From a virus: a stretch of 64,000 bases of DNA. Location: the IMG/VR virus record IMGVR_UViG_3300037232_000040. One strand, written 5' to 3'. Below, one piece after another: positions 1 to 64,000 of the stretch. The position numbers were made by a program, and so were the translations under genes. Under the pieces are notes generated by a model. It made no database searches, was not told the origin of the DNA, and was given only the letters and a program-made list of their open reading frames with translations. How positions within the stretch are numbered: the stretch's first letter is position 1; each line of letters begins with the position of its first letter.

Positions 1-2
1 CC

Positions 3-170
3 CAGGTAGCTGCGCTCACCAGCCACTTGGCTAAAATGGAGTGTCCCGTATGCCGAGAAAGCCTCGGTAGACCCCATTCAGAGTTTTGGAAAGACTGTTC
101 TGACTGCGAAGAGCAACGCGCTGCCCTCTCTCATTCCAAGGAAGCCGCGCCGGGAAAGGATGGATTCTGA
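3..170 (+). CDS. small Cys-rich ORF, possibly truncated by the window edge (in-frame ATG at 36)
   Basis: Frame open from position 3 to TGA 168-170. CPVC and CSDC cysteine pairs. Stop overlaps a following ATG (TGATG). Shorter than the track cutoff. The competing minus ORF 131..550 looks non-coding. Confidence 0.2.
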   Translation, partial: QVAALTSHLAKMECPVCRESLGRPHSEFWKDCSDCEEQRAALSHSKEAAPGKDGF

Positions 171-348
171 TGCCGCATGTAGCGCTGCCCGAAGTGTCTC
201 AGGCTGATGCTGGCAGTCTGGAAACGGTGTCCTGTTGCGAGGCCGAGCCCCGGCGGTTCTTGGCCAAGTTTGGACGGCACTCTAGTAACCAACGCAACTA
301 GCACGAAATAGGGATTTACAAACGGTTGGGTTGTAGTAATCTGATTGC

Positions 349-480
349 ATGAAACGTTGTCAAGCAGGTGGTTGCAAGGAGCGATACAAGCCGAGAGTCT
401 GGTGGCAACGCTATTGCAGCCTGAGATGCAAAAACCGGGAACTGATACGCCGATACAGGGCAAAAAAGAGAAAACTGTGA
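349..480 (+). CDS. 43-aa basic zinc-ribbon-like protein
   Basis: ATG 349, TGA 478-480. MKRCQAGGCKERYKP..YCSLRCKNRE.. has two Cys pairs plus an Arg/Lys tail. Stop overlaps downstream GTG (GTGA). Alternative to the TTG-initiated track ORF 345..635. Confidence 0.35.
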   Translation: MKRCQAGGCKERYKPRVWWQRYCSLRCKNRELIRRYRAKKRKL

Positions 481-635
481 TCGACCAAGAGAAATGCGAA
501 GAATGCGGCAAGTACCTGGATGACTGCGACTGCGACGAGCTTGCAGTCATCGCTGACGAAGGCGCCCCTCAGTTTGACAGCAATCGCAACTGGAGCAACC
601 TACCCATGGCCGAGCCGGAAGATGAGGAGTCCTGA
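477..635 (+). CDS. 52-aa acidic Cys-containing protein ending EPEDEES
   Basis: GTG 477 overlaps the upstream stop and is in the frame of track ORF 345..635. CEECGKYLDDCDC motif. The 3' end lies in the 35-nt repeat 612-646. Confidence 0.3.
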   Translation: MIDQEKCEECGKYLDDCDCDELAVIADEGAPQFDSNRNWSNLPMAEPEDEES

Positions 636-646
636 TATGAAACCGA
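612..646 (+). repeat. 35-nt exact repeat, copy 1 (copy 2 at 47398-47432)
   Basis: GAGCCGGAAGATGAGGAGTCCTGATATGAAACCGA is identical at both sites. It spans the stop of one small ORF and the ATG of the next. Confidence 0.95.
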
Positions 647-915
647 AATTCACCCTCACGATCGTGCTGGAAAAACACGAGATCGGAGTTCCAGCAACAA
701 CGGTACAAAGCGGCCATCTCGTCGATGTGGCGGCCAACGAATCCGAAGCGGTGGAACTCTACGCTGCGCTGCTCAACATGGCTTACAAGTGGCGCGACAA
801 GATGGATTCCGAGCATATCGTAGCTCAACCGATCAAGCCGCTCACTTGGTGGGAAGAGTGCCATACCGAGCCGATCAAGCCGTTCATTCACGTATTCACG
901 GAGCCTAAGCCATGA
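637..915 (+). CDS. hypothetical protein, 92 aa
   Basis: ATG 637 lies one nt after the upstream stop, in frame with track ORF 520..915. No domain recognised. Confidence 0.5.
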   Translation: MKPKFTLTIVLEKHEIGVPATTVQSGHLVDVAANESEAVELYAALLNMAYKWRDKMDSEHIVAQPIKPLTWWEECHTEPIKPFIHVFTEPKP

Positions 916-1010
916 CCGCCTACACCGCTATCGTGTTCGTGATCGGCCTGCTGTGCGGCACCACCGTGGGGTTCGCTGTCTCATCTATCTTGCTGGCAGG
1001 AAAGGAGTAA
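912..1010 (+). CDS. 32-aa single-pass membrane peptide
   Basis: ATGA overlap with the upstream stop. MTAYTAIVFVIGLLCGTTVGFAVSSILLAGKE is one hydrophobic helix. Its 3' end supplies AAGGAG for ATG 1014. Confidence 0.3.
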   Translation: MTAYTAIVFVIGLLCGTTVGFAVSSILLAGKE

Positions 1011-1013
1011 GCC

Positions 1014-1196
1014 ATGGCTGACACAGGCATACGAGAAAGTGGAATGACCGGAATCGAGCGTCACTGGTTCGAGCAAGCCGAGGAGCAGCAAGCCGCTATC
1101 GAAAAGTTCTGGCAAGAAATCATCGTGGCCGATATTGACGAGCTACGAAAACTGGAGGAGGCGTTCCGTGGAAGACCAAACGACACAGCCCACTAA
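1014..1196 (+). CDS. hypothetical protein, 60 aa
   Basis: AAGGAG upstream of ATG 1014. Acidic helical sequence. The 3' end overlaps the erf start. Confidence 0.45.
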   Translation: MADTGIRESGMTGIERHWFEQAEEQQAAIEKFWQEIIVADIDELRKLEEAFRGRPNDTAH

Positions 1197-2109
1197 CCTG
1201 ATTCAGAAACTTGCCGAAGCCTGCGATGCGGTTGGAGGGGTCGAAAAGAAGGGCCACAACGACGCCCAACGCTACAAGTACGTCAAGGCAGCAGATATTG
1301 CCAAGGCGATCCGGCATGAACTGTTTGGCCGGGGAATTGTCATCCTCCAACACGAACATGAGCCCGAATACCTTGAGGTCGAACTCACTCCAGATCGGGA
1401 CAACAAGCCTCGTAAGGCATTCGAGGTTCGCATCCAAATCGAGTTCCGGGTAACAGACGGAACCACGAGTATTTCGCTGGACGCCTACGGCACGGCCCGC
1501 GACTCTGGCGATAAGGCTATCTGGAAGGCCAAGACCGGAGCTCTGAAATACTTCCTGCGAGGCCTGGGGCTGATCCCTGACGAGAAGGACGATCCCGAAC
1601 ACGACGCACCGGGCGACGAGGAAGCAGGCGAACTCCACAGCGCCACCAAGCAAGACAATACTGTAACTCTGGCTGGAGTCATAACCGCCGAGAAGCAGAG
1701 CGAGAAGGGTATCTGGTACACCATCCACACCTTGACTGCTGAGGGCGAAGCCGATGCCTATGTGCTATCTCCGAATGATTCAGGCCGGCTGGCCGAGAAG
1801 ATTGACTGGCTGGTGAACCTGCGCGTCCGCCCGCTGGTTGTCTCCAAGCCGGGACTGTTCTTTACCCTGGTTGACGTGCTCACTGTGCGCAAGCCGGAAA
1901 ATCCGGACTCCGAGCCTGCTACCCAAAACGAGCGCAAGAGCGGGATAACCACGAGGCAGATCAATCGGCTATACGCCATCAAGAGTTCAAAGGGTATATC
2001 GGACACATGGCTGACCGACGCCCTGGGCCGGGAAGGCTTCGAGCATACAAACGATCTAACCCCTCTGGCCTACAAGCGGATTTGCGATGAAATGGAGTTG
2101 ATGGCATGA
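1168..2109 (+). CDS. erf: ERF-family single-strand annealing (recombination) protein
   Basis: GTG 1168 follows GGAGGAG. The N-terminal ~150 aa align by eye with P22 Erf blocks (..RYKYVKAADIAKAI.. and ..TGALKYFLRGLGLIPD..). The track ORF starts at TTG 1135. Confidence 0.75.
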   Translation: MEDQTTQPTNLIQKLAEACDAVGGVEKKGHNDAQRYKYVKAADIAKAIRHELFGRGIVILQHEHEPEYLEVELTPDRDNKPRKAFEVRIQIEFRVTDGTTSISLDAYGTARDSGDKAIWKAKTGALKYFLRGLGLIPDEKDDPEHDAPGDEEAGELHSATKQDNTVTLAGVITAEKQSEKGIWYTIHTLTAEGEADAYVLSPNDSGRLAEKIDWLVNLRVRPLVVSKPGLFFTLVDVLTVRKPENPDSEPATQNERKSGITTRQINRLYAIKSSKGISDTWLTDALGREGFEHTNDLTPLAYKRICDEMELMA

Positions 2110-2220
2110 GCGAAGTACGCATCGTGGTGCCTCTCCTGAAATAAATATCAAAGTGGGTACGAACGGGGGATGACAGAGTGATGGCGTGGGAGCATTATGC
2201 AGACATCAGGAGGCAATCAG

Positions 2221-2562
2221 ATGGCAACTAAAACTTGGATTACCGACGCAAACAATAACCGCTGCTCCATTGATTATTGGGGGTCGCGTGAAGCGGCACA
2301 GAAGGCGCTTGATAGCCTCAAAAACTGCTTCGACTGCACCGACTGCTCCGACTGCTTCGACTGCTCCGACTGCACCGGCTGCTACCGCTGCTCCGACTGC
2401 TCCGACTGCTACCACTGCTCCGGCTGCTTCGGCTGCTCCGACTGCTCCGGCTGCTCCGGCTGCTTCGGCTGCTCCGACTGCACCGACTGCTCCGACTGCT
2501 CCGACTGCTACCACTGCTCCGGCTGCTTCGGCTGCTCCGGCGATATTGGTTTTACGGTGTGA
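2221..2562 (+). CDS. Cys-triplet repeat protein (36-aa unique N-terminus plus 24 consecutive C-x-x triplets)
   Basis: AGGAGG 7 nt upstream of ATG 2221, in frame with track ORF 2197..2562. The first 110 nt are identical to 63875-63984, where a second copy starts behind AAGGAG. Confidence 0.6.
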   Translation: MATKTWITDANNNRCSIDYWGSREAAQKALDSLKNCFDCTDCSDCFDCSDCTGCYRCSDCSDCYHCSGCFGCSDCSGCSGCFGCSDCTDCSDCSDCYHCSGCFGCSGDIGFTV

Positions 2563-3077
2563 GTAGGGCAGGTGAACTTGCGTGTTGCAACGCAGATAGT
2601 TACGCTGCTAAGTGGTTGGAAAATATACAATTAATGAGTGTGTTACAGCACACAAACTTAGTGTTGCTAAGTTGCATAATGCCTTACGCAAACAGCCTGC
2701 CCGTAGTACCGAACACGCGGGGTACCTGCAATAGTTGCCAGCGTGGCGGCATTGTAGTCCTACAACATGGTGGCGGAGTGCACGTGCTGGCCATGCACAC
2801 GGTTGCCAGTGCACAGTGCCCCGGTAGCTATAGCATCCCGGAAGCTATAAGCATCCCGGAAGCCACCTATGCCATACCACCCAACCAAGCCGTATGGCCC
2901 TGTGAGAATGTACCGGTGGCCCTAGCTACTGAAAAGCGCAAGCTATGCTCCGCCGTGCGCCACAGCAGCCCCACGGTAAGCGCACAGCCGGTGTATGCGC
3001 CTAACCGTACTACCAAGCCCTGCTGCGGTGGCAGTGGTGCGCACACCAAGGAATGCAAGGCGGTGCAGCATGGCTAG
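2559..3077 (+). CDS. hypothetical ORF, start uncertain, may be partly non-coding
   Basis: Track ORF only. No RBS or domain recognised. Contains a 14-nt direct repeat (AGCATCCCGGAAGC x2, about 2833-2870). Stop overlaps ATG 3070. Confidence 0.2.
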   Translation: MSRAGELACCNADSYAAKWLENIQLMSVLQHTNLVLLSCIMPYANSLPVVPNTRGTCNSCQRGGIVVLQHGGGVHVLAMHTVASAQCPGSYSIPEAISIPEATYAIPPNQAVWPCENVPVALATEKRKLCSAVRHSSPTVSAQPVYAPNRTTKPCCGGSGAHTKECKAVQHG

Positions 3078-4065
3078 CCCACACAGTGCCACCGCAGCCA
3101 AGCGCATACAGGCCGCACAGCGCAGCGGCAAACCGGCTAAGGCAGCTAAGGCAGCTAAGGCAGCTAAGCTGCTAGCCAAAGCTACAAAGCCCGTACCAAA
3201 GGTTACACACGAAATACTTGGTCCTGATATAGTTGAAGACTTCCTGCCTGAGTACCCACAGATAGGGGCTGGAATGCTGCTGCCTTCTATACTTACTGCG
3301 CCTACCGTAAGTAAGGCAGCACAGAAACGCGCTGAGAAAGCAGCGGCCCTGCAAGCCAAGGTTGCAGCCGCGCAGCAAACCGCTAAGCAGCGGTTGCTGG
3401 TAGTGGGCGACCACGTTGTAGAGTGCCGCCCATTTGCGGGGCAGCTTAAGCCCGAACCGGAGCCTGAAACGCAAGTGGTGCCGCGTAAGCCTGCCACTAG
3501 GGTGGACGTTAACGTGTACCAAGTGTACCGAGACATTAACGGTGTGGCCTACTTGCGCGTAGGCCAAAGCAAAGACGGCGCAATGCTGGTAGTGAACAAG
3601 GGCTTTCAGGTGGAGCTAGTGGACATGCCCAACGACACCATCAAGGCTTTGAATCTACAGCCCGTAGTGGGTAGTAGCATATTGGATGCTGCAGAAAAGT
3701 TGTTGCACCCTATGAACGACCAAGCTACAATTTCTTTGCGTGCAAAAACACAACTGATTTTAATACTTGAAAACGAGGAGTTACAAAACATGGCTACCAA
3801 GAGCGTTGAAGCGAAGAACAAACCGGCGAAGTTTGCCAGTGTTAATGCCCCGGCTGCCAAGGGCAGCAAAGCCACCAAACCTGCCAAGGCTGAGAAGCCT
3901 GCTAAGGTTGAGAAGCCTGCTATGGTTGAGAAGCCTGCTATGGTTGAGAAGCCTGCTAAGGCCGCGAAGAATGCCACTAGCGGTGAACCAGCATCGCAAC
4001 GCCCCAAAGCAGACAAAAACGACGAACTACGGGGCAGCCGCTTCGGCTACCTGTACAACAGCTAA
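3070..4065 (+). CDS. Lys/Ala-rich repeat protein (histone-H1/AlgP-like tails around a unique core)
   Basis: ATG 3070 is in frame with track ORF 2995..4065. KPAKAAKAAKAAK comes from a 9-nt x3 repeat (about 3135-3166). EKPAKV/EKPAMV x4 comes from an 18-nt repeat (about 3892-3960). Confidence 0.55.
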   Translation: MASPHSATAAKRIQAAQRSGKPAKAAKAAKAAKLLAKATKPVPKVTHEILGPDIVEDFLPEYPQIGAGMLLPSILTAPTVSKAAQKRAEKAAALQAKVAAAQQTAKQRLLVVGDHVVECRPFAGQLKPEPEPETQVVPRKPATRVDVNVYQVYRDINGVAYLRVGQSKDGAMLVVNKGFQVELVDMPNDTIKALNLQPVVGSSILDAAEKLLHPMNDQATISLRAKTQLILILENEELQNMATKSVEAKNKPAKFASVNAPAAKGSKATKPAKAEKPAKVEKPAMVEKPAMVEKPAKAAKNATSGEPASQRPKADKNDELRGSRFGYLYNS

Positions 4066-4089
4066 AAAGATTAAGGAGACTAGTTCTTT

Positions 4090-4881
4090 ATGGCAGTGCA
4101 ATGGAACGCAAAATGCACCCGCACTTCGGAGTATCGTTTCTATCCCGAAGACATCAAAATTAAACCTGAACTCAATGGTCGCCACGAACTCCCCGACGTG
4201 GAATGTTTGATCGAAGACATTACTCGCAACGGTCAGATTTCGCCGGTGACGGTACGCAACGATGGCGGAACGCCTGTCCTGGTCGCGGGATTCTCCCGCT
4301 GGCGCGCGGTGAGCGAAATCAACAAGCGCAAGTTGCTTCCCGTCAAGTTACAGATGCGCTGCACTTACGTGCAGTGTTCGGAGATGGAGGGCTTCGTCGC
4401 TAACATCGCAGAGAACCGCTTTCGCAACGGCACTTCCTTGTTGGACGATGCTCACAACATCGCCAAGCTGATTCACAAGTGGAACCTGACGGAGCAGCAG
4501 GTCGCGGCGATCTACTTCCCCGACGCAGCGAAAGACGAGACGGTTGGGAAGGAAGCGCTGCGCTTCGTGAAGAAGCGTTTGGGACTGGCAACGCTGACCC
4601 CGGAAGCAGAGGCAGCTATTTTGAATGGCCGGTTGAAAGAGACCGCTGCGAGCGCTATCGCCAAACTGGACGCGGAGAACCAGCGTGCAGTGATCGCCAA
4701 ATCAAAGGGCGGAGCAGTGAAGGGTAGCACTGTGGCCGCTGCTGGTGACAAGAAGACTCGCCGTTCGATCAAGGAGCAGATCCGCGAAGTCATCGAGAGT
4801 GGTACGTTCAAGCTTGGCAAAGTAGAACATACTGCTGATCAAACCGTGATCGATTGGCTTTCCAGCCTTCTCAGCAGCTAA
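4090..4881 (+). CDS. ParB N-terminal (ParB/Srx nuclease-like) domain protein
   Basis: AAGGAG upstream of ATG 4090. ..NGQISPVTVRNDGGTPVLVAGFSRWRAV.. matches the ParB-box G-x-x-R-x-x-A region. Confidence 0.75.
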   Translation: MAVQWNAKCTRTSEYRFYPEDIKIKPELNGRHELPDVECLIEDITRNGQISPVTVRNDGGTPVLVAGFSRWRAVSEINKRKLLPVKLQMRCTYVQCSEMEGFVANIAENRFRNGTSLLDDAHNIAKLIHKWNLTEQQVAAIYFPDAAKDETVGKEALRFVKKRLGLATLTPEAEAAILNGRLKETAASAIAKLDAENQRAVIAKSKGGAVKGSTVAAAGDKKTRRSIKEQIREVIESGTFKLGKVEHTADQTVIDWLSSLLSS

Positions 4882-5153
4882 CTCGGAAGCGCGAATCGAA
4901 GCTGGTTCGCGCTTTCGTTCAGGAAAACTGGCAGCTTGGGTTCTGTCTGGGAAACGTAGTGAAGTACGTAGCGCGCGCAGGGCACAAAGATAACGCACAC
5001 ATGTACTTTGATCGTGCACTTACATCCGCAGAAAGACGCACGCTGGCTCTGGCCAATAAGTTAGCCGGTATGCTGGAGTGTGTGCACGAGCGCAGCCTTG
5101 GTAACCGTTACGTAGAGCTAGCCTTTAAACATTGGCTTACTCATCCTGCGTGA
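4854..5153 (+). CDS. small protein with partial DUF3310-like motif
   Basis: TTG start overlaps the parB-like 3' end. ..LGNVVKYVARAGHKD.. resembles the DUF3310 core. Start unsupported by an RBS. Confidence 0.3.
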   Translation: MAFQPSQQLTRKRESKLVRAFVQENWQLGFCLGNVVKYVARAGHKDNAHMYFDRALTSAERRTLALANKLAGMLECVHERSLGNRYVELAFKHWLTHPA

Positions 5154-5228
5154 AACCATAACCCCTAACGAGACGGAGCTCGCAGTTGTTAAAGCAGTGC
5201 TGCAACTGTGGGAGGAGGCTACAACGTA

Positions 5229-5735
5229 ATGACAGTGACACACATGCACACACCCGGTAAAGACGTAGATAAGGGTGGTAGTGGCTACGTATACGCTACC
5301 TGTGTAATTTGCAGCCGCAAAATACGTCGTTGGACTGGCAGTGAAGGAGCACAGTGGGAGGTGCTAGCAGAAGCAAAGCAACCGGTGGTAGCAACAGCAA
5401 CAGTCGCAACCTTAGCAGTACCCAAAGATGTTAAGGATGCCATTGATGACGACCAGCTTGCTGCTGTGGCTCGCAGTGCTAATGCATGGCAGGTAGGCGG
5501 TACGCACTACCAAGACAACGCAGTGCAGTGCCCACATTGTGGTGGCACGCTGCAGCACTGGGATATTTACAAATTCTTTCCGTATATTGAAGGCGTTATT
5601 ACGAAGTATCTTTGGCGTTGGCGTGATAAGAACGGTGTGCAGGACTTGGATAAGGCGCGCCACTACCTTGACAAGTTGTTTGAAGTGGCCAGCGGTGAGT
5701 TGATGAAACCTAAGCCGCAGCACAGAACACCGTAA
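5229..5735 (+). CDS. DUF3310-like domain protein with CxxC insertions
   Basis: GGAGGAGG upstream of ATG 5229. C-terminal ..THYQ..ITKYLWRWRDKNGVQDLDKARHYLDKL.. fits the DUF3310 pattern as I remember it. Confidence 0.5.
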   Translation: MTVTHMHTPGKDVDKGGSGYVYATCVICSRKIRRWTGSEGAQWEVLAEAKQPVVATATVATLAVPKDVKDAIDDDQLAAVARSANAWQVGGTHYQDNAVQCPHCGGTLQHWDIYKFFPYIEGVITKYLWRWRDKNGVQDLDKARHYLDKLFEVASGELMKPKPQHRTP

Positions 5736-5761
5736 GCTAGAGCACAAACGAATAAAGGCCA

Positions 5762-5815
5762 GTAGGCACTCCCCCAGTACATCGGGCAAGTGCCTACCGA
5801 CCTTTGTTGTTTTTA
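5762..5815. terminator. candidate bidirectional terminator between convergent arms
   Basis: GTAGGCACT (5762-5770) pairs with AGTGCCTAC (5789-5797), followed by TTTGTTGTTTTT. Lies between the + arm end (5735) and the - arm end (5921). The 18-nt loop is large. Confidence 0.35.
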
Positions 5816-5920
5816 CGGTGGATTTAGTTTGCAGGGCACAGTGGGGATGCTGCGTGCCCCGCACACTGTGCCCCGGGCCGCATGGCTGGCCACCACCTAC
5901 CATGCGGCAACTTATAGACC

Positions 5921-6721
5921 CTAGTGCCAAGCCGGGCCAAGATGTAGTACCCAAGCATCATTAAGGTACTGGTTAACGTAGTTGTACGGCAGCCAGAAGT
6001 CACCGCCTTGGCCCCACGTACTGCCCCAGCTGTTGCGTTTGTGCAGTGCACCTTGTGAGCCATCAAGGTTTTGGTGTTTGTCATCGTAGCCAAAGGTAAG
6101 CGTACAATGGCCGCCCAGCGACTGCTCAGTGCTGGCAGGCATAGGTACTTCACCACTGCTGGCTACGGCATCACTTTCAAAGGAATTAAAAACATCAATG
6201 CCATCGACAAAGCAGTAGCCGCTGGCTAGGCACCCTTTCATATCGCCTAAAGTAGGCAGTGTGTGATATGCTCCACCCTTGTACTTAATCGCATCTGCTA
6301 CAGCTTGTGGACTGGGTGGTGTGTTTAATGTGGCTGGCCCATAAGCATCGTCAACTTCTGGGCACACCCCAAACTTATTTAGTACCTTAGCACCGGTACG
6401 CACCATGCCGCCGGCATCATTGGGTAAGGTACCTTCGAGCTGGCGTACTAGGTAGTAAATGTCTTGCGGGCTAAACTCCGGTACTGCTGTAGTGTACGGA
6501 CCGAACTTGCGGAATAGCCAAGCCGCAAACCCTTGCCACCCGTGGCCTACGCAGCTGCCTTCCTGTCCTTGGTCACGTACTGCACCTAACAGTGCACCTT
6601 CGTCAGCTGCAATGGGCTGCACAGTAGTACCAGTTAAGCGCAGTATCTTGTCACGGGTGTCAGCGCTGTCCCTAAGCTGGCCGTACACACGGCCAGCTGG
6701 CGAAACTACAAGTGGGTTCAC
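5921..6721 (-). CDS. papain-like cysteine peptidase (family C1)
   Basis: Q..GSCVGHGW (oxyanion Gln plus catalytic Cys), GGHCTLTFGYD (His) and NSWGSTWGQGG (Asn) occur in canonical order. No signal peptide. Confidence 0.8.
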   Translation of the reverse strand: MNPLVVSPAGRVYGQLRDSADTRDKILRLTGTTVQPIAADEGALLGAVRDQGQEGSCVGHGWQGFAAWLFRKFGPYTTAVPEFSPQDIYYLVRQLEGTLPNDAGGMVRTGAKVLNKFGVCPEVDDAYGPATLNTPPSPQAVADAIKYKGGAYHTLPTLGDMKGCLASGYCFVDGIDVFNSFESDAVASSGEVPMPASTEQSLGGHCTLTFGYDDKHQNLDGSQGALHKRNSWGSTWGQGGDFWLPYNYVNQYLNDAWVLHLGPAWH

Positions 6722-6739
6722 TTTTGTGTATGTCCTTTC

Positions 6740-7216
6740 TTACAGCCTACGGTTGGTACCGGCAATCTTGGCAGCAGCGTTGAACTGCTGCTTGAATTGC
6801 TTTGCAGTAAGGGTTGCGCTACCCCTGACTTGCGCCTTGGCAGCAGATTTAATCACAGCCCCACTGGAGTTAGTAATGGTGCCTGCCGGGGCTTGCGCGG
6901 TAATGAAGCTCTCAATGGCCAGCACTACGGCCTGCACCAAAGCCTGCTGTTTGGGGCTAGCCTTAGTAGCTGCCTCTTGGTACAGCTGCAGCGCTGCAGC
7001 CAAGCAACTGTCAATCTTTTCGGTGGTTGTGCCGGGTGCAGCGGCACAGACAATGGACTGCGCAGCCTGCTCAACCAGGGGCGCAATGGCAGGGTCGGCA
7101 ATGACAACCACGATGTCGGATGCAGATACAATATCCTGCATCAGGGTTGGCGCGCTGCACGCGGTACCTGCCAGCAGTACAACGATGGCTACTACGATAA
7201 GGCAAATAGTTTTCAT
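6740..7216 (-). CDS. lipoprotein, 158 aa
   Basis: GGAGAA upstream of ATG 7216. MKTICLIVVAIVVLLAGTAC has a lipobox (LAG-T-A-C region). The Ala-rich helical body is too long for a typical o-spanin. Confidence 0.6.
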   Translation of the reverse strand: MKTICLIVVAIVVLLAGTACSAPTLMQDIVSASDIVVVIADPAIAPLVEQAAQSIVCAAAPGTTTEKIDSCLAAALQLYQEAATKASPKQQALVQAVVLAIESFITAQAPAGTITNSSGAVIKSAAKAQVRGSATLTAKQFKQQFNAAAKIAGTNRRL

Positions 7217-7275
7217 AGCTTGTGTTTTCTCCTGTGGCACACGGCACACAGTGGGTGGCCACTTCTTTGTGGGGT

Positions 7276-7629
7276 TTATGTGGGTTGCTTGGGTGGTGTG
7301 GCTGTTAGCACCGCTGCAGTTACCAGAGGTGCTCCTTCAGGCGAGCTTGCGTTTATAGCTACCACGGCAGATGCTACTTGTTTGGGTGGCGTAGCTTGCA
7401 GCTGCGCCAGCTGGCCTTCTGTGCTGTGCCCACCAGCATAGCGTGAGTAGGCAAATGCTGCAAAGTTAAACAGCAGGCAATAGAACGGGTGCTCATTTAG
7501 GAATCCTAGCACCTGCCCGCGTGCGCTTGCATCAGCCGCTAGGAACAATGTAAACATTCCGTAGATACTGACAAACGTATGCGCTGAAAGATTGTGTTGA
7601 ACAACCCATAGGTTTATCTTGTTTAGCAA
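7276..7629 (-). CDS. two-helix membrane protein with PPKQ-repeat tail
   Basis: TTG start overlaps the endolysin stop. Hydrophobic stretches FVSIYGMFTLFLAA and FYCLLFNFAAFAY. ATPPKQ occurs twice near the C-terminus. Confidence 0.4.
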   Translation of the reverse strand: MLNKINLWVVQHNLSAHTFVSIYGMFTLFLAADASARGQVLGFLNEHPFYCLLFNFAAFAYSRYAGGHSTEGQLAQLQATPPKQVASAVVAINASSPEGAPLVTAAVLTATPPKQPT

Positions 7630-8153
7630 GGCACCACCCCTCCATTGTAGTAGTTAACAACGTGGGTGGTATATGCAGGCGATATTTTGGCCTTGGGGTT
7701 TCCACCGTTCCAAGTGTCACAAATGTCGTGCAAAGTTTTGTCCTTCCAATGCTCAATTACATAGTGATTGAAAAACTTAATGCTAGCTGCAAAAGTTAGC
7801 GCCGGGTCGGCCGCTAACTGCTCTGGTGTATAGGGCTGCAGGTTGTAGGCCATGACTTGCAACGGGCCGTAGCTGCAGGCACCGTCATAGGGGTACTTGG
7901 CAATGTACTCCTGCAAATCTGTACTTGCGGTGTACAAGGCACCACCCTTGTCCCAACTAGGCTCGTGGCGCGGTGCCATGTTAGCACCAAAGCTGCTCTC
8001 CACACCACACAGCGCCCACAACAGGCGTACACCGTCAATGGGCTTGCCGTTAGATGTGTCAACGGACTCAGCAAGTTCAAGCGCTGGTCCATTAGCGTGG
8101 CACAACTGCCCAAGCAATTGGCGTGATATGCTTCTTACGTATTTTTCTGTCAT
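7623..8153 (-). CDS. endolysin, lytic transglycosylase (SLT)-like
   Basis: ..LCGVESSFG.. (Glu-Ser catalytic motif) and ..YGPLQVM.. resemble SLT domain blocks. Lies next to small membrane-protein genes. Confidence 0.55.
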   Translation of the reverse strand: MTEKYVRSISRQLLGQLCHANGPALELAESVDTSNGKPIDGVRLLWALCGVESSFGANMAPRHEPSWDKGGALYTASTDLQEYIAKYPYDGACSYGPLQVMAYNLQPYTPEQLAADPALTFAASIKFFNHYVIEHWKDKTLHDICDTWNGGNPKAKISPAYTTHVVNYYNGGVVPC

Positions 8154-8178
8154 GCTCCTCCACGATATGTTTACTCTT

Positions 8179-8502
8179 TTACCTGTGACTCCGGTAATTC
8201 GACCACTCTAATCGCATTTGTTTCAGTTCCAACTGCAAAGCGACCAACTGCTCGTTGTTATCTTTCAGCGCTTCGGTAAGGTTCTGAATCTGAATCGCCT
8301 TGATCCCCTGGTCGCCCAGATTCTTTTGGACCTCTATTGCGAGCTGATCCTTGGAAACATACACTTCCTTGATGTTCTGGACATCGTTGCTCAGTTTGAA
8401 GTAACCCCCAATGGCCGGTAGCCACGAAGCCAGCAACGCCACGGTGAGGATGATATCGCGTATCGTGTACGGCTTGTTGGGTTGGGGATCGTCCATCGTC
8501 AT
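8179..8502 (-). CDS. N-terminally anchored coiled-coil protein (i-spanin-like or holin partner)
   Basis: GGAG upstream of ATG 8502. One TM (IILTVALLASWLPAIGGYF) followed by a heptad-rich helix. Position fits a lysis cassette. Confidence 0.45.
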   Translation of the reverse strand: MTMDDPQPNKPYTIRDIILTVALLASWLPAIGGYFKLSNDVQNIKEVYVSKDQLAIEVQKNLGDQGIKAIQIQNLTEALKDNNEQLVALQLELKQMRLEWSNYRSHR

Positions 8503-8504
8503 TG

Positions 8505-8843
8505 CTAACTCCGACGAGACGCTGCTGGGGGGTCCATACGTTCGTCACTATCTTCTTGTTGCTCCTCTGAATCCCGCACCAGTGTGTGTAATGGTTTACC
8601 GTTAAAGGGTAAAACGTGGTACTGATCAATGAGTGTTCTCGGTAATGGTGTGCCGGTTTCTTTGGCTACATAGATGATAGCCATGTTCAACCACTGAACA
8701 TAACGTATCAGAGCGAATAGTAGCCGCCAAAGTATACCGGCTAGCAGTAGTGTAGACGAAACTCCGCCTACCATTAGAATGATTTGGCCTCCAAGGCTAG
8801 CACGCACTGAGAATGTTCCCAAGAATAGGTTCCAAATGTACAC
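8505..8843 (-). CDS. holin-like membrane protein, start uncertain (GTG 8843 or ATG 8774)
   Basis: Hydrophobic helices followed by a highly charged C-terminal tail (DSEEQQEDSDER). The upstream end overlaps the 3' end of the fibre gene. Confidence 0.4.
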   Translation of the reverse strand: MYIWNLFLGTFSVRASLGGQIILMVGGVSSTLLLAGILWRLLFALIRYVQWLNMAIIYVAKETGTPLPRTLIDQYHVLPFNGKPLHTLVRDSEEQQEDSDERMDPPAASRRS

Positions 8844-11028
8844 CTACAACGTTCGGCTTATGGCCAAGCCTACTCCGCCTTTCTTTTAGAGATAGGAGCG
8901 CTACTGTACTGCTGTACTGGAAAATCTCATTCGGCTCGTTCCTTACGTGGATTCCAGGCGCAACAGCTATGTTGATAGTGGCGTGTGCCGTGGCCCCCAA
9001 ACTATCTGTCACCTGTATAAGTGCGCTGCAGGTACAGGTAGCCGTAGGCGTGCCAGTTATAAGCCCGGTACTGGTGTTGAGGGTTACGCCTGCAGGCAGC
9101 GAACCACTAAGTATAGTCCAAGAAGCGTAGACGCCACTGCCGCCTGAGGCTAGTAGCTGGTAGCTATACACACCACCTCCCAGGTTTCCAGTTGGTGGAG
9201 TGGTGGTGGCGATAGTTAGTGTGCCGCCGCCGCCGCCCGCGCCGCACACGCTCGTCGCGCATAGGGTTGAGTAGTTTATACCAGCCTGCGTGCCATCGGT
9301 TGTGTGCGCGCTCCAATCCGGAATGAGCAGCCGGTAGTCACCTCCTCCGGGATTTACATAGGTGAAAGGAGTAGTGGTGGCGTCGTTCGACGTTCCCGGC
9401 CAAGTTTGTTGCTGATCACCGCTGGGCACGAACATCACATTCCCATAAAAACGGGGAGACAGAGGAGCCGGATCGCCCATGTAATAGCCTAATCCAACTA
9501 TCCCGCCATAAATAGTTACCTCACCGCAATCACCATTTGCCTGCCGCGTCATCGCGTTGTCGAGAACCCAAACATTGTGAGTCGAGGAGTAGCCTTGCGG
9601 AGGGGTGCAGCCCCACGAAAGTTGAGGCAAGCTAAAATAAGCAGAATTCCAAAGAACCGAGCTATCAGCCATCAGCACGGTGTTGTGTTGAAAAATAAAA
9701 TCAGTTTCCCCCGGCAAGCTACCATTGACTGGACCGCATCCGCTGCAGCCGCCGTCTAGCTTGAGGGCCCCATGCTGATAAGTGTCTTGGGTGTCTCTGA
9801 GCAAGATCAGGTTATTGTCAATCCACAGCCGCTTGCTTTCTCCCGCATTCGTACATTGCGGATAGCCGAAGGGTGCACCGCAATTGTTGTCGGCCTCCAG
9901 CGTCGAAATACCGGAATTAACGTTATTCAGGAGGTTACTCTGGAACGAAACGTCATCGACGACAGCGATGTTGCCGCTTTGGCTGGTGCGTGGAGTGAAA
10001 ACAACAGACGTCCCGGTTGTCGCGCTCATCCAGGTGTTCTGGAAGACATTGCCGGTGACCACCACTCGCTGCGCGCTCTTGAATTCTAAGTTGTCCTTCT
10101 CAACCCACTGATTATTAGTCCCCACCGGACAGGTGCTCCCATTCGCCAGTTGCTCCCCGGCTGGCACGGTTCCGCCAGCGCCGCAGGATTCCCAGGTTAG
10201 AGGTTTGAAGAAAAGATTCCGGCGAATCTCTATGTCCGAAGGAATATAAGGATCGTTGTAGCCACCAGCACCGCCGAACATCACGTCTTCCGTGGTGGCA
10301 GACAGGTAGTCATCAACGATCTTGATTGGACCTGGGGTCCAGAAGGCAAGTACTGCCTGAGAGTCAAAGACACTCTCGTGGATATCGGAAATGTAGCTGT
10401 CGATGACGGCGAAGTTGCTGCCATTGGCTTGCACGCCCTGGCCTACATCCTGGGTGGGCGAGCCATGAATGTAGTCGCGATCAATGGTTATCGAGTCAGG
10501 AATAACTACTCCCAATACAGGGTTGACGTTTAAGCAGACTAGACAGTATGTGAAGTTATTGCTGGGCGGATTGTTGCTTGGGTTGCCGCCCTGGGTCGAA
10601 TTGGACGTGATCTCTAATCCCACCAGGCGATAGTGGTTTGCGCCAGGCGCCAAATTGATCGGGGCGCTGGTATTGGTGGTTGTAATTGTCGGCATGTTCG
10701 GGGTGTTGCCGGGAGCAACCCTCGTCCCCGGAGCCGGCAAACTGGATAGCGCTGAACTCTCGATGTAAATCCACTGGCCGCTCGGGTTAGGCTTCAAAGG
10801 CAGTGTGAAGTTGCCGCTGTAGGTCGTGCCGGCGTGGAGAACAATGGTGTCGCCGGGAAAGGATTGCATAAGGTCGAGGCTCAACTGAGCGGCGGTAAGG
10901 GGGGACCATATGCGACCGTTCGGCGCATTCCAGGTGGTATCGATGTACACGTGCGGCGGTGTTGGGACCGGCTCTTGGGCTGCGGCGACAACCATAAATA
11001 GAAGAACAAGAATCAACAGTTTCTTCAT
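8797..11028 (-). CDS. secreted right-handed beta-helix protein (tailspike/depolymerase-like) with C-terminal Ig-like domain
   Basis: Sec-type signal MKKLLILVLLFMVVAAA-QEP. Pectate-lyase-like repeat region. C-terminal YSYQLLASGGSG..LPAGVTLNTSTGLITGTP resembles the cadherin-like putative Ig domain. Confidence 0.6.
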   Translation of the reverse strand: MKKLLILVLLFMVVAAAQEPVPTPPHVYIDTTWNAPNGRIWSPLTAAQLSLDLMQSFPGDTIVLHAGTTYSGNFTLPLKPNPSGQWIYIESSALSSLPAPGTRVAPGNTPNMPTITTTNTSAPINLAPGANHYRLVGLEITSNSTQGGNPSNNPPSNNFTYCLVCLNVNPVLGVVIPDSITIDRDYIHGSPTQDVGQGVQANGSNFAVIDSYISDIHESVFDSQAVLAFWTPGPIKIVDDYLSATTEDVMFGGAGGYNDPYIPSDIEIRRNLFFKPLTWESCGAGGTVPAGEQLANGSTCPVGTNNQWVEKDNLEFKSAQRVVVTGNVFQNTWMSATTGTSVVFTPRTSQSGNIAVVDDVSFQSNLLNNVNSGISTLEADNNCGAPFGYPQCTNAGESKRLWIDNNLILLRDTQDTYQHGALKLDGGCSGCGPVNGSLPGETDFIFQHNTVLMADSSVLWNSAYFSLPQLSWGCTPPQGYSSTHNVWVLDNAMTRQANGDCGEVTIYGGIVGLGYYMGDPAPLSPRFYGNVMFVPSGDQQQTWPGTSNDATTTPFTYVNPGGGDYRLLIPDWSAHTTDGTQAGINYSTLCATSVCGAGGGGGTLTIATTTPPTGNLGGGVYSYQLLASGGSGVYASWTILSGSLPAGVTLNTSTGLITGTPTATCTCSALIQVTDSLGATAHATINIAVAPGIHVRNEPNEIFQYSSTVALLSLKERRSRLGHKPNVVGVHLEPILGNILSAC

Positions 11029-11100
11029 TTTTTGAGAACTCCTAGTAACGCAAAAACATAGGTTTTGGTGCTTTGGAAACTAAACCGGAACCACACTTGA

Positions 11101-14100
11101 TCATCGATCTTGCGTACACGTCACCGCAACTTCGAACACGGGATAGGTCGAGCAGCCGACCGGAGGGGTCACAACATTGGTGCAGTAGGAAACCTGTCCG
11201 TTGGCGGCATCGTAGATTCTGCCCGCACCCAGGTCGCGCCATACCTCCGCAATGGTAAGGGTGGTGCCAACCGACGTCAGATTGGCGTTAGCGAGCGAGG
11301 TGCTGCCCAGAGTGCTGTTGGCCATAATGATGTTGTTGTTCCCACTCACCGTCAGACCCGAGAAGTTATCGATCCAATTCAGCTGGTTGGCAATCGTGGC
11401 CTGAGTGGTGCAGCCTGCGCTGGCAACGGTTTGCGAAACGTCAAACTTGCAGGCGTAGTGGGTGGCCGCAGTCGGCTTGATTATGTTAATGGTGCTGATA
11501 CAGCCGGTGCTCATTCCGGATGTGGTGGTGACAATTGTATCTGCTGGAGCATATTGGATATCGGGAACGTTGGTGACGCCGGTTCCCGAAGAATTATTTA
11601 ACTGAACTAGACCGCTGCTGATAGTAATCGGCGACGTCGCTCCTACAATCGATGCGCAAGGCCGAAACGGGTTTGAAGCGTTGAAGTCTCCGATCTGCCC
11701 AGCGCCGGACGCCGCTGTGGTGACGATGCCCAGATATTCCAGGCAGCCGGAACCTGGCGGCGGCGGTGGAGAGTTTACGGTATAGCCGGAGTCGTGCCCG
11801 TAGCCCGACGTGGTGGTGCTGGCTACAATGTAGTGACCGACCACGCTGGCCCCGTCCATGTAAAGCGGAGTGTTCCCGGCTACGGAAAATTCCCCGGTCG
11901 CGCCGAGCTTGCACATGTCCACGCAAACATTCAGCGGGATGGCGGTGTCTCCGGTTGCCGCCGTGGTCCAGCCCGCCGGACCCTCTTTCGCCAGCTCGAA
12001 AAGGGTGGGCGCGCTGCTGGCGTTGATGCCATCGATCGTGGTCAGCCCTTTGCCCAGGCGGCGGCGAGCATGCAGATGAGGATAGGTTCGGACGATGTTC
12101 TGCGTGATCTGCTCGCCGACAAACTGCTTGCCCTCATCGCTGAGATGGACGCCATCGAGATACAAATAGCGGTTGTTGCCCACCGTCTCGTTCCCGATAA
12201 GGTCATTTACGTTGAAAAAAGAAATGGGACGGGCGGGCGTGGTCGCCATCCATGCCGTAGTCGAATCCAATACCGCGTTGCTGTAAGCCTGGGTCGTGTA
12301 GGCGCAAGTTCCAAGGCAAGTCTGGTTATTATCTTGCTGGCTGATCCAGCCTTCATCCGAGTTGGGGTTGGCCGCAGCCAGAGTGTTATGCAGCGTCGTC
12401 CATGTGCCCTGGGCGGTGGCCGGGGAGACCCCGGTATTGCGCTCATTTGTGCTGTAGCTCACCAGAAAGCTGTTGGCACAAAAATTGGTGCTGGCCGGAG
12501 TTGTGCCCTGGCAGTTGCTGGTGTTCCAGAGTTGCGCGCCGAAGCCGGTATTCAGGTTCCGCATGGCGGCGGTCTCGGAATCGGAGGCAAGTTTTTCCAC
12601 GCGCACACCATAGCCATTGCTCAGGGCCGCAACCTGGTCCTGGGCGTCGGCACCAAGGAAGTAAGTGCGGGTTGCCGTGGTCGTAGTGAGTTTCAGGGAG
12701 TGAGACCCTTCGGGAATCGGGTTAGTGCCGTCCAGGGTGGCGACCAGCTGGGTGGCCCACCCCGCCGTGCCCGTGGTCTCGTTAATGGTCCCCTGGGAAG
12801 CGTTCGCATCGATGCCATAACTGAAACTGCCGCAACCGCTCACACAGGTGGGGTAGTAGATGACGAATCCACCGCCATTGGCGCTGCTGCCGCTGACGTT
12901 GGGGCAGGTGATGGTCAGAGTGTCGCCCGAGGTTGCGTCGGAAATCTCGGTGTCGTCCGGGCTGTAAATGCTGTTGCCGGTGCCGTTGGTTTCCTGGGTC
13001 CAGTGGCTGGCGTTGATGACGGAGGCGCTACAGCCGTCGGGCGCGGGGTTATGCACGTTCCCGTCCCATCCGGTGAAGCCGACCTGACCCGCTGCCTGGG
13101 CCGACACCCAGCCCGGTCCGGCGTTGCCGTACATCTCGTGTAGGATGCCGGCCATGACCGTACACCAAGACTTCCCATCGTTCGCGCCGGAGGTGATCGA
13201 ATCGCCGATGCAGGCAATAACGTTCTGCGGTTGCTGGCCCGTTGCCGGGGTACCCCGAATCTCGCTCAGCGCATTCTGCCCAAAAGCAAAGGCGGCAGCG
13301 TATTCAGAGTGGACAGCCAACTCTGCCAACTCGGTTTCTGACTGGTTGCTAGTTCCGTCATAGACCCGTGAGTGTCCTAGCGCGGTGTTGAACCAGCTCC
13401 AACCCGTCCCTGGGGAGGAGACGTCGCCGGTGTTGAGGGAAAAGAAAGTGTTGACCGCCGTAGGTACGGCTGGGGAACTAGTGTTGTTGGCCAGGACTGT
13501 ATAAGCAGCCTGGGACCCGAGTCCGCCGGTGCTCAGCGCCACATTCGACCAGATATGAGTACTGGTGCTGTAGCCGCAGGCGTGCGTGGCGTCACCGCAA
13601 TTAACGAACTGCCCGGCTATAGGATCGCTGCTGCCCACGCCAGCTAGATACTGATCCGTACCCAGTGCGACGAAGTTAAAAGCTGATGCACCTTCGGCGA
13701 TCGGTACTTCATGGGCTGACGGACTCACAGTTCCCGTTCCGCCCAGAGGCGCGCCAACTGCGCCCGAAAGATTGGCCGGGTTGAGCGCGGTCAAAGCCGA
13801 GGCGTTTACTGCCGGAAGGTGCGCACTGCCGTCTAACTGCACCAGGTCATCGGCTGCGACTCCAAGCGCGTAGGAAGATGAGCACCAGGCCGACCCAGTT
13901 GAGCAAGCAACTCCCGCCGACGGATAGATCATGCTGCTGCTACCGCCGGGGCATGGCGAACCAGAGCAGGTGAAGCTGGTAACAGCTAACGCGCCGGTGG
14001 AGTTGACGCTAAAACCCGTGCCTACCACCAGCGAGTTGGCGATCTGCGTCCCCGCCGGATTGACGTACAAGGCCCCCGAGTCTCCAGGGAGCGAGACCGC

Positions 14101-41485: not shown

Positions 41486-41590
41486 TGTGTTGTGTGTTGT
41501 GTGTTGTGTGTTGTGTGTTGTGTGTTGTGTGTTGTGTGTTGTGTGTTGTGTGTTGTGTGTTGTGTGTTGTGTGTTGTGTGTTGTGTGTTG
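41486..41590. repeat. perfect heptanucleotide microsatellite (TGTGTTG)x15
   Basis: Counted directly: 105 nt, 15 uninterrupted units. Confidence 0.95.
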
Positions 41591-41750
41591 CGACACACTA
41601 ACAACACCCAAGTTGTGTGTTGTAACACCCAAGTTGTGTGTTGTAACAACGAACAACTACGTGTTGCGACACACTAACAACACCCAAGTTGTGTGTTGTA
41701 ACACCCAAGTTGTGTGTTGTAACAACGAACAACTACGTGTTGCGACACAC
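41591..41750. repeat. two perfect 76-nt tandem units plus the start of a third
   Basis: 41591-41666 equals 41667-41742. 41743-41750 repeats CGACACAC. Each unit contains AACACCCAAGTTGTGTGTTGTAAC twice. Confidence 0.95.
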
Positions 41751-46958: not shown

Positions 46959-47333
46959 ATGAGCAAGAGCACGATCAGTACCTTCCAGCTTTTCGAGATG
47001 TTCCCGACGCCTGAGTCGGCACGGTTGTACCTCGAATCGCGCATCTGGCCCGATGGTCCGTTCTGCCCTGAGTGCAAGAGCCGTGAGCGCATCGGTAAGC
47101 AGCCCAAAGTTGGCTTCTATCGCTGCAACGCCTGTAAGCTCGATTTTACGATTCGTACTGGCACCATCTTCGAGCGGTCGCACATCCCGCTTCACAAATG
47201 GCTTTACGCCATGTATCTGCTCGTCACTGCTCGCAAGGGTATTTCCTCTCTGCAACTTGGAAAGGAAATTGGAGTTACACAGAAATCCGCGTGGTTTATG
47301 CTGCAACGGCTCCGCGAGGCTAGAAACGGGTGA
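46959..47333 (+). CDS. IS1595-type transposase N-terminal zinc-ribbon/HTH domain protein lacking the DDE domain
   Basis: MSKSTISTFQLFEMFPTPESARLYLE..RIWPDGPFCPECKS..YRCNACKLDFTIRTGTIFERSHIPLHKWLYAMYLL..KGISS.QL. Ends at aa 124, where the DDE domain would begin. Confidence 0.75.
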   Translation: MSKSTISTFQLFEMFPTPESARLYLESRIWPDGPFCPECKSRERIGKQPKVGFYRCNACKLDFTIRTGTIFERSHIPLHKWLYAMYLLVTARKGISSLQLGKEIGVTQKSAWFMLQRLREARNG

Positions 47334-47397
47334 GACCATGTTGCAGTGTGCCGCGCGTGAGTTTTTCGGGCGCGCTCCGGATGGTGTCAAAGCCCAA

Positions 47398-47432
47398 GAG
47401 CCGGAAGATGAGGAGTCCTGATATGAAACCGA
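47398..47432 (+). repeat. 35-nt exact repeat, copy 2
   Basis: Identical to 612-646. Spans the stop of a 27-codon ORF (47338..47421, ..QEPEDEES) and ATG 47423. Confidence 0.95.
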
Positions 47433-52547: not shown

Positions 52548-52600
52548 GCTCCGCCGCGCCCTCAACCTTGGGTAAGCGGTGCGTCCCGCATGGCAGCGGG

Positions 52601-52620
52601 GGCCGGTACGGAACCCGGCA
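52601..52620 (+). repeat. conserved 20-nt leader element, copy 2
   Basis: See 46929-46948. Confidence 0.85.
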
Positions 52621-52633
52621 GAAGGTTAAAGCC

Positions 52634-58610: not shown

Positions 58611-58759
58611 CAGCATCAGAAATACAAAGCAACATAGAACGGTTGCGTAGTACAGCTTCACCTAGTCGGCTAAGAATCGTATAGGTGCAGCAACTAAGAA
58701 ACGCTGGGCTAACAAAGCATATAGGGAAAAGCTGCGTAAAGCGCACCAAAAAGTAAACA

Positions 58760-60646: not shown

Positions 60647-60647
60647 T

Positions 60648-63842: not shown

Positions 63843-63874
63843 GCTTGGTTGGTGCGGTTAAGGAGAAAGCAGAA

Positions 63875-64000
63875 ATGGCAACTAAAACTTGGATTACCGA
63901 CGCAAACAATAACCGCTGCTCCATTGATTATTGGGGGTCGCGTGAAGCGGCACAGAAGGCGCTTGATAGCCTCAAAAACTGCTCCGACTGCTCCGACTGC
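63875..64000 (+). CDS. second Cys-triplet repeat protein, 3'-truncated by the window edge
   Basis: AAGGAG upstream of ATG 63875. The first 110 nt are identical to 2221-2330. It then continues CSDCSDC... Confidence 0.6.
   Translation, partial: MATKTWITDANNNRCSIDYWGSREAAQKALDSLKNCSDCSDC

Follow-up and report, generated by a model that had tools for sequence, protein, structure and literature searches.

The frame at 2221..2562 of the 64,000-nt stretch of viral DNA analysed here (the window) is, judging from the way in which it is conserved among its relatives, a real and translated phage gene whose Cys frame is the one used. Its product consists of a short N-terminal cap followed by an uninterrupted run of Cys-x-x triplets, the (Cxx)n array, and comparison with proteins of related architecture indicates that this array is a discrete, interchangeable repeat module that stands in place of a pentapeptide-repeat domain. 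Sequence comparisons between strains likewise indicate that the arrays change quickly. The family to which the protein belongs is already catalogued in PHROGs, without an assigned function.

Gene layout and reading frame

The gene at 2221..2562 (copy 1; Table 1) encodes MATKTWITDANNNRCSIDYWGSREAAQKALDSLKN (35 aa), followed by 24 consecutive C-x-x triplets and the tail DIGFTV. The triplets, of the types CSD, CTD, CFD, CSG, CFG, CTG, CYH and CYR, are exactly those listed in an earlier, sequence-only reading of the window, which had described 24 uninterrupted triplets of eight types; its lengths for the N-terminus (36 aa) and the tail (7 aa) each proved to be one residue too long. At the DNA level, Tandem Repeats Finder reported a 9-nt unit in 24.0 copies at 2324-2539, with 84% matches. 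All 24 Cys codons of the array are TGC, C-ending codons are used throughout, and changes are limited to codon positions 1 and 2 of both x codons. The protein has a pI of about 4.05 and contains 25 Cys in 113 aa, all of them with CxxC spacing. Its array is strongly acidic, with 12 Asp versus 1 Arg, and also includes 5 Phe, 3 Tyr and 2 His. Inspection of the protein sequence showed neither a signal peptide nor a hydrophobic segment. The same 113-aa protein was found, letter for letter, on 3 independent metagenome contigs from three samples.

Two further features accompany the gene. The tail differs from (S)DNGLRWEYAKGR, the tail of the sister copies, by one extra T and a 6-nt deletion, as determined by alignment with contigs L003 and L004. 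Downstream, about 110 nt 3' of each copy (2566-2674 in the window) are about 93% conserved among copies, and one of the two small hairpins in this module shows a compensatory change from T..A to C..G. A search of positions 2100-2900 against Rfam gave sub-threshold low-complexity matches only, and no family for the 3' module.

With regard to the reading frame, the strict C-x-x period is present in all 120 homologues among the matches listed, which carry 5-34 triplets, and arrays of up to 64 triplets occur at IMG/VR loci. The codons behind this period differ between lineages: across loci at G+C 31-64%, Cys is mostly encoded by TGC, with TGT in AT-rich lineages, and the codon for Ser, the dominant residue at position 2, is TCC, TCG, TCT or AGC depending on the lineage. 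Conservation is thus seen in the amino acids but not in the nucleotides, and peptides read in either of the other frames cannot be conserved. The sequence-only reading had favoured the Cys frame over the Ala/Pro/Thr-rich alternatives, because of good ribosome-binding sites in front of both ATGs, and had named a loss of Cys periodicity in homologues as evidence that would speak against it. The binding sites are present at both copies (Table 1), the period is kept in 120 of 120 homologues listed, and the synonymous codons are lineage-specific, all of which upholds that choice.

Table 1. Positions of the two gene copies and their associated elements in the window.
Feature	Position	Strand	Remarks
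Shine-Dalgarno AGGAGG, copy 1	2208..2213	+	7 nt 5' of ATG, read from the window
Copy 1 CDS	2221..2562	+	113 aa, stop TGA (translation of the window); short-form (Cxx)n family member, phrog_15341
N-terminal cap, 35 aa	2221..2325	+	predicted strand-strand-helix-helix; AF2 pLDDT 82-93; kept in homologues
Array, 24 C-x-x triplets	2326..2541	+	aa 36-107; 24 copies of the 9-nt unit TGC-TCC-GAC and variants
6-aa tail DIGFTV and stop	2542..2562	+	frameshift relative of the sister-copy tail (S)DNGLRWEYAKGR
Conserved non-coding 3' module	2566..2674	+	accompanies gene copies; two small hairpins
Shine-Dalgarno AAGGAG, copy 2	63860..63865	+	9 nt 5' of ATG, read from the window
Copy 2, 5' part (N-domain + CSD CSD C...)	63875..64000	+	leaves the window at its end

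The protein family and its exchangeable array

While the sequence-only reading had placed the protein in no family with confidence, copy 1 matches phrog_15341 over residues 7-106 (E 2.3e-17, 64.3 bits), and the same PHROG also matches the homologues P0033 and P0107 and the L022 protein. Searching with the protein sequence identified 301 homologues (E <= 1e-3), and a scan of genome collections for the family gave at least 12 loci. In an exhaustive profile search, clusters formed at 50% identity gave 2,909 matching representatives at E <= 1e-3, of which 1,195 reached E <= 1e-10; the count of 2,909 takes in proteins having only the shared C-terminal domain described below. The family is therefore widespread at this threshold, yet has no Pfam model or solved structure. 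Neither Pfam nor NCBIfam contains a model for the copy 1 protein (in Pfam, none at E <= 10), matches of the N-domain to SPOR were weak and below threshold (E 0.045-0.07), and a search of PDB sequences with the family profile for solved relatives returned nothing significant. The phage of the window itself appears to have no close cultured relative: among INPHARED phages, neither megablast with window positions 1-12000 nor tblastn with the protein gave a match. For searches of this kind it should be noted that the BLAST low-complexity filter hides the Cys array. In the literature searched we found no description of this family; the one relevant report is that of Haft (2009) on Cys-Xaa-Xaa bacteriocins.

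The family, whose arrays have the general form (Cys-Ser/aromatic-x)n, is recognizable by its cap, with the consensus W..D.NGN[RK]CSVEY[FW]GS.EAAQKALDSLKNC. Copy 1 shows the type-A form, W..D.NGN[RK][CA]S.E.[FW]GS.E.A...L..L..C, followed by an uninterrupted C-x-x array, which is the combination by which we delimited the family. Most relatives are 170-197 aa long and continue after the array into a conserved, helical C-terminal domain of about 100 aa, which is the most frequent architecture. This domain starts with the consensus P.IP.IENIH..VY.AAS.P.AL.M..WHTC.TTHCRAGWVV.LAGEAGK.LE and ends with ALADMKRLA; its invariant residues are H, C, H, C, G and W, within the motif H-x-C-x3-H-C-R-A-G-W. The window protein lacks this domain and ends 6 aa past the array, making it a short form, and no C-terminal domain was found to be encoded elsewhere in the window, either by tblastn or by an HMM search of six-frame ORFs. 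Copy 1 is not alone in this respect: in other lineages, roughly one in three of the best-scoring profile representatives is without the C-domain motif, although some of these come from truncated contigs. One homologue, P0008, keeps only the last helix of the domain.

The C-terminal domain links the family to a second group of proteins. A tblastn search with the long-form homologue P0033 detected it in 19 records of Ralstonia phages, among them RSK1, RpY1 and RsoP1IDN, at 50-56% identity and with E-values down to 6e-26. The matched proteins include RSK1 ORF34 (BAO04699.1), a protein of RpY1 and RsoP1IDN gp4 (AUG85443.1), and several of the matched genes carry the annotation "putative pentapeptide repeat protein". 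In their translations, a short N-terminal cap is followed by an A[DN]LxX pentapeptide array and then by the same C-terminal domain. Bacterial MAGs and numerous metagenome proteins show the same combination of pentapeptide array and C-terminal domain, and one Burkholderiaceae MAG has a 12-residue repeat in front of the domain instead. In PHROGs, the Cxx and pentapeptide-repeat groups are joined by phrog_31265.

The pentapeptide proteins of Ralstonia phages (phrog_31265) therefore resemble the Cxx proteins in having a short cap, a variable array, a homologous C-terminal domain of about 100 aa and a place among early genes. In contrast, their repeat is A[DN]LxX with a period of 5, whereas that of the Cxx family has a period of 3 and an invariant Cys. 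Their caps are not detectably homologous, and homology between the two was rejected at an hhalign probability of 1.8%; the parallel between the two groups is architectural only. The window protein further differs from the phrog_31265 proteins in lacking the C-terminal domain. We also rejected the option that copy 1 is itself a pentapeptide repeat (PF00805 and relatives), given its period of 3 rather than 5 and the lack of any Pfam match at E <= 10.

Outside this pairing, the (Cxx)n array occurs with at least 3 unrelated N-terminal domains and with several C-terminal domains, and it is found up to ten times within single proteins of 548-1426 aa. A frequent opening of the array is C-x-N-C-[TIV]-N-C, and a subset of members close it with [VI]A[FWY]L..K..L. 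We regard the array as a tandem-repeat scaffold of phage accessory proteins whose repeat chemistry is without precedent. Its exchange with pentapeptide repeats in front of a shared domain offers a concrete way to approach both protein groups by experiment.

Paralogous copies, array turnover and gene neighbourhood

A second copy of the gene (copy 2) lies near the end of the window, directly 3' of a gene for a SNF2-family helicase (62343-63842). The sequence-only reading had reported a second gene from 63875 with a 110-nt identical 5' end; the gene is there, while the identity extends over 109 nt (2221-2329 = 63875-63983), the first mismatch being T at 2330 versus C at 63984. Upstream of the ATG, the identity between the copies is 0 nt, and their opening triplets differ, with CSD CSD in copy 2 versus CFD CTD in copy 1. 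As both the upstream DNA and the first triplets are different, the copies are paralogues and not the product of circular wrap-around, in agreement with what had been claimed. Exact-pattern scans of JGI metagenomes and IMG/VR for sequence past the window ends gave nothing.

Contigs of the same phage lineage show how these copies vary. Contig L004 matches the window at 99.98% identity from 58665 to 64000 and extends beyond the window end; its copy 2 comprises 7 triplets with the tail DNGLRWEYAKGR, and 190 nt further on lies another tandem copy. On L052, two tandem copies with 23 and 11 triplets follow the Erf gene, the first of which opens exactly like copy 2 of the window. L003 carries a 20-triplet copy directly 5' of an exact copy-1 gene. 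In other words, near-identical strains have arrays of 7, 11, 20, 23 or 24 triplets, in 1-2 tandem copies per locus at two loci, and they also differ in triplet order. These differences support the earlier proposal that repeat number could vary, for which slippage had been named as the cause, and the comparison of triplet counts among relatives that had been recommended gave a range of 5-64 triplets, with variation also between near-identical strains. Each array is uniform in its wobble bases and varies only at positions 1 and 2 of the x codons. The use of one codon set per array indicates concerted evolution, by slippage or by unequal recombination of 9-nt units, with diversity of amino acids at the x positions. 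We also considered the array as the target of a diversity-generating retroelement. This was rejected, since no reverse transcriptase was found among + strand ORFs of >= 300 aa and there is no adenine bias; the array variation comprises C>T, C>A, T>A, A>G and G>C changes, and the sole other copy is the paralogue.

Copy 1 lies between a gene for an Erf-family recombinase (1135-2109) and a Lys/Ala-rich ORF that is followed by a ParB-like gene, and copy 2 is preceded by genes for DNA polymerase A, a PD-(D/E)XK nuclease and the SNF2-family helicase. Genes on the + strand occupy 41.4-64 kb and 1-8 kb, and both gene arms may form one continuous block if the genome is circular or permuted. The sequence-only reading had assigned one copy to an early arm and the other to the end of a replication arm. 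Both of these arms lie on the same strand. For five homologues, on six contigs, the gene context could be compared, and all five lie in early operons near genes for integrase, repressor, RecT, YqaJ, Gp157 or AAA_24. No virion or secretion genes were found near the gene in the contexts examined.

A possible metal-thiolate scaffold and competing explanations

To relate the repeat to a fold, we considered AF2 models of a long form and of the window protein. In long-form P0033, the cap (pLDDT 86-94) and the C-terminal domain (about 92-98) are predicted with confidence, and the Cys array falls below 50. In the window protein, the cap reaches 82-93 and the first ~9 triplets 71-90, with the rest below 50; in the model, the bridge residues of these first ~9 triplets recur with a period of three, at position 2 of each triplet. 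Foldseek found no match in PDB for the long-form model, and its sole match in BFVD was a 74-aa homologue with 69 aligned positions. The window model likewise gave nothing significant against PDB (E >= 1.1, probability <= 0.06). The best of these non-significant matches (eIF2B subunits, LpxD) are mostly hexapeptide-repeat proteins with a left-handed beta-helix, and the likeness of the window model to such a helix is at most a hint.

Statistics of the arrays add some constraints. In a modulo test, triplet number showed no preference for multiples of 2 or 4, which argues against a rigid unit of four Cys per metal. Autocorrelation of the x residues was weak at lag 3 (z 6.5 and 2.7), with avoidance at lag 2, and this weak super-period of three triplets may come from block duplication of DNA. 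Across the family, Ser is dominant at position 2 of the triplets, and the arrays are mildly acidic, with a mean of -0.17 charge per triplet and 17% of them net positive. This mild mean acidity rules out a uniform DNA-mimic surface as a family trait.

The CxxC spacing of the window array is shared with the CxxCxGxG repeats of DnaJ, CXXC-type zinc fingers, rubredoxin knuckles and metallothioneins, and a Cys-rich sequence in the cytoplasm is expected to bind thiophilic metals, as CxxC zinc modules and metallothioneins do. Zinc-knuckle modules, however, have a fixed number of ligands and defined spacers, whereas the window array is uninterrupted, variable in length and without a match to any model. 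The sequence-only reading had argued against classical zinc fingers, and this is borne out by the absence of a Pfam match, by E-values of 2-5.5 for CXXC-finger matches in PDB and by the lack of significant Foldseek matches. Very narrow solenoids of short repeats are known from the Tenebrio molitor antifreeze protein and from left-handed hexapeptide beta-helices. The Tenebrio protein has a Cys every 6 residues, forming an internal ladder. It is secreted and disulfide-bonded, whereas the window protein has a period of 3, is probably cytoplasmic and shows no significant match in structure or sequence. In solved pentapeptide-repeat proteins, the repeat forms a right-handed quadrilateral beta-helix.

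We propose that the array may fold as an elongated repeat scaffold, the structural counterpart of the pentapeptide-repeat beta-helix in the sister proteins. This scaffold would be held by Cys thiolates on metal (Zn2+, another thiophilic metal or a cluster) and not by disulfides. Since the protein should be cytoplasmic, metal thiolates, one of the two architectures suggested in the sequence-only reading, are the most likely link; the other, a disulfide ladder, is less likely, because the lack of a signal peptide and the early gene blocks without virion or secretion genes point to the reducing cytoplasm. The variable x positions (D/G/R/N/Y/H) would form the exposed surface, and expansion and contraction of the repeat would tune the length of the rod as well as its surface. 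The protein as a whole would be an accessory factor of the early phase, non-essential to the phage, with a host macromolecule as its binding target, in host take-over or anti-defence, a role that we infer only from gene neighbourhood and rapid evolution. The window copies, being without the C-terminal domain, would act via cap and array alone. Taken jointly, the metal-thiolate scaffold, the variable x surface and the non-essential early host-targeting function form a tentative proposal, to which we give somewhat less than an even chance of holding in all its parts. Should the array be a folded, metal-linked rod, it would represent a new architecture, with a Cys at every third residue across up to 190 residues.

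The pentapeptide-repeat beta-helix acts as a DNA mimic in Qnr and MfpA. By extension, (Cys-x-x)n could be an undescribed metal-thiolate solenoid that is swapped with the pentapeptide beta-helix to block a host DNA-processing or defence enzyme, which we consider possible but unlikely. The position of the genes by Erf, RecT and YqaJ genes would then recall Gam- or Abc-type nuclease inhibitors, and 9-nt slippage together with recombination between paralogues would provide built-in arms-race variation of length and surface. The exchange of the array with pentapeptide repeats also suggests places to seek new anti-defence or host-takeover factors.

A different function for the same thiols would be that of a metallothionein-like or Fe-S/redox sponge, in which the metal or the thiols themselves are the function and the array is a capacity device that sequesters or delivers Zn, Cu, Cd or Fe, or buffers oxidants or electrophiles, in infection. 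The 25 Cys per 113 aa with CxxC spacing throughout, the variable length without parity constraint and the lack of a stable AF2 fold over most of the array would all suit such a device. Metallothioneins, however, usually lack aromatic residues, whereas the window array has many Phe and Tyr, as well as His, and Ser rules position 2 family-wide; no metallothionein or other model in Pfam or NCBIfam matches the protein; and the start and end motifs, together with the fusion to folded domains at the position of the pentapeptide array, suggest a structural module. We therefore regard a sponge as unlikely.

The window copies could also be decaying, considering that the C-terminal domain is absent and the tail of copy 1 is frameshifted. 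According to this explanation, they are remnants of long forms, kept only as slippage by 9 nt cannot break the frame. That most relatives have the C-domain, that P0008 retains just its last helix, that the copy 1 tail is frameshifted with respect to the sister copies and that the window holds no separate gene for the domain are in line with decay. On the other hand, every allele found in this lineage (the window copies, of which copy 2 is seen in its 5' part, and those on L003, L004 and L052) has an intact N-domain, a strong ribosome-binding site and an in-frame array, the exact 113-aa protein recurs in three samples, and the copies have been duplicated rather than lost. Other lineages also lack the C-domain motif (the third of top representatives mentioned above, some on truncated contigs). 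Taken together, this makes decay quite unlikely.

Cys-Ser dipeptides are classic azole-forming sites, and the protein could in principle be the precursor of a thiazole/oxazole RiPP (TOMM, heterocycloanthracin-like), with the N-terminus as leader and the Cys-Ser-x array as a core on which cyclodehydrating enzymes of the host or the phage would act. The precursors of heterocycloanthracin and sonorensin (TIGR03601) combine a conserved N-terminus with a strain-variable run of Cys-Xaa-Xaa that undergoes whole-triplet indels (Haft 2009, PMC2674419). They are the sole described case of strain-variable Cys-Xaa-Xaa repeats behind a conserved leader; the Bacillus heterocycloanthracin peptides have 13-Cys precursors, and the precursor genes can lie far from the maturation genes (PMC2674419). 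While the layout is similar, the window family shows no leader homology (7.1 bits with TIGR03601, whose cut-off is 35; E 8.2), its "leader" is predicted to be folded (pLDDT >90), and its members are early proteins of phages. No maturation genes (cyclodehydratase, dehydrogenase or docking protein) were found among 20 + strand window ORFs of 151-700 aa or in seven gene tables covering contigs of homologues and sister strains, and no radical-SAM enzyme or transporter was seen in the gene contexts examined (window and homologue contigs). In most members the array lies within the protein, with a folded 100-aa domain behind it, even though it is C-terminal in the short form of the window, and arrays run to as many as 64 triplets, with many of them inside proteins of 548-1426 aa. 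A RiPP precursor is thus highly improbable.

Finally, the repeat could act primarily as DNA, for example as a hotspot of recombination or slippage or as an array of binding sites, with the ORF incidental or an Ala/Pro/Thr-rich frame used. The perfect wobble uniformity within each array, the paralogues that share their 5' ends exactly and carry a conserved non-coding module on the 3' side, and the strain arrangements that suggest recombination between copies would fit such an element. It is nevertheless largely refuted and barely tenable: lineages agree in Cys-Ser-x but not in the underlying nucleotides, the frame of the array always continues that of a conserved N-domain and in most cases runs on into a conserved C-domain, and a strong ribosome-binding site precedes each copy.

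As a practical matter, (Cxx)n genes interrupt metagenome assemblies and may lead gene callers astray, and their recognition aids the annotation of phage genomes.

Copy arrangement and assembly breaks

Copies of the Cys-repeat gene are arranged differently in contigs from near-identical strains. In L003, a copy with 20 triplets is found immediately 5' of the exact copy-1 gene, and in L052 the recombinase gene Erf is followed by two tandem copies, the first of which carries the 5' end of copy 2, the paralogue at the far end of the window. Differences of this kind among near-identical strains suggest recombination or gene conversion between the paralogues, with assembly chimeras as a possible alternative source. 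Contigs of this phage and its relatives (L001, L004, L011, L020 and L027) often have their start or end at or inside Cys-repeat genes. Assemblies appear to fail at the Cys arrays and at the identical 5' ends, and the copy number of the gene is therefore probably under-counted in databases.

Feature positions, in window coordinates unless a contig is named
Feature	Position	Repeat
20-triplet copy and copy-1 gene	L003 1-1279	
Erf and two tandem copies	L052 1-1036	
Afu_254 matches	2416-2536	
Conserved 3' module	2566-2674	
97-aa gene called in L001	2784-3077	
Intergenic repeat	2820-2863	18-nt unit, x2.5
Lys/Ala-rich ORF	2995-4065	
In-frame repeat in Lys/Ala-rich ORF	3136-3168	9 nt, AKAAKAAK
In-frame repeat in Lys/Ala-rich ORF	3880-3961	18 nt, PAKVEK/PAMVEK
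Heptamer array region	41486-41750	TGTGTTG x15; 21 nt; 76 nt
Primase/helicase-like ORF	43472-45574	
ORF of Gly-rich protein	47330-48223	
GGC-rich tandem repeats	47844-48131	9, 30 and 51 nt
Zinc-ribbon ORF	52568-53053	
C-terminal domain and third repeat kind	L038 7239-8282	12 residues, about 12 copies

The conserved 3' module and the heptamer array

The approximately 110 nt that follow copy 1 are about 93% conserved behind the other copies in L003, L004 and L052. This module contains two small hairpins, one of which shows a compensatory change from T..A to C..G, and its RNA fold z-score is -2.35; neither an Rfam family nor a terminator-like site was found in it. Within the Cys array itself, Rfam gave matches to the fungal sRNA Afu_254 that stay below threshold (28 bits, gathering score 60) and are most likely artefacts of low complexity.

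The module also contains GTGTT(G/A)C, a motif shared with the heptamer array. In the array region, the heptamer, 21-nt and 76-nt repeats are all perfect. The region is located in the gap that separates a minus-strand block of large ORFs, presumed to be virion genes, from the replication block on the plus strand, and a primase/helicase-like ORF (DUF3854/DUF5906) lies downstream of it. It may be an origin (iterons) or a regulatory array.

Other repeats and ORFs

The stretch that separates the Cys-repeat gene from the gene after it contains a repeat of the unit CCCGGAAGCTATAAGCAT, partly within the 97-aa gene. The neighbouring ORF encodes a Lys/Ala-rich protein of 356 aa, which has no Pfam match and may be a histone-H1-like, DNA-binding protein. 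The GGC-rich repeats lie inside an ORF whose Gly-rich product likewise has no Pfam match. Further along, a 161-aa ORF encodes the zinc-ribbon domain of IS1595-type transposases (E = 2.8e-11) and lacks a transposase catalytic domain.

Outside the window, a Burkholderiaceae MAG (L038) encodes the H-x-C-x3-HCRAGW domain, the C-terminal domain of the long-form relatives, in fusion with a repeat of a third type, neither pentapeptide nor (Cxx)n, with the unit SIASDGTVARVL.
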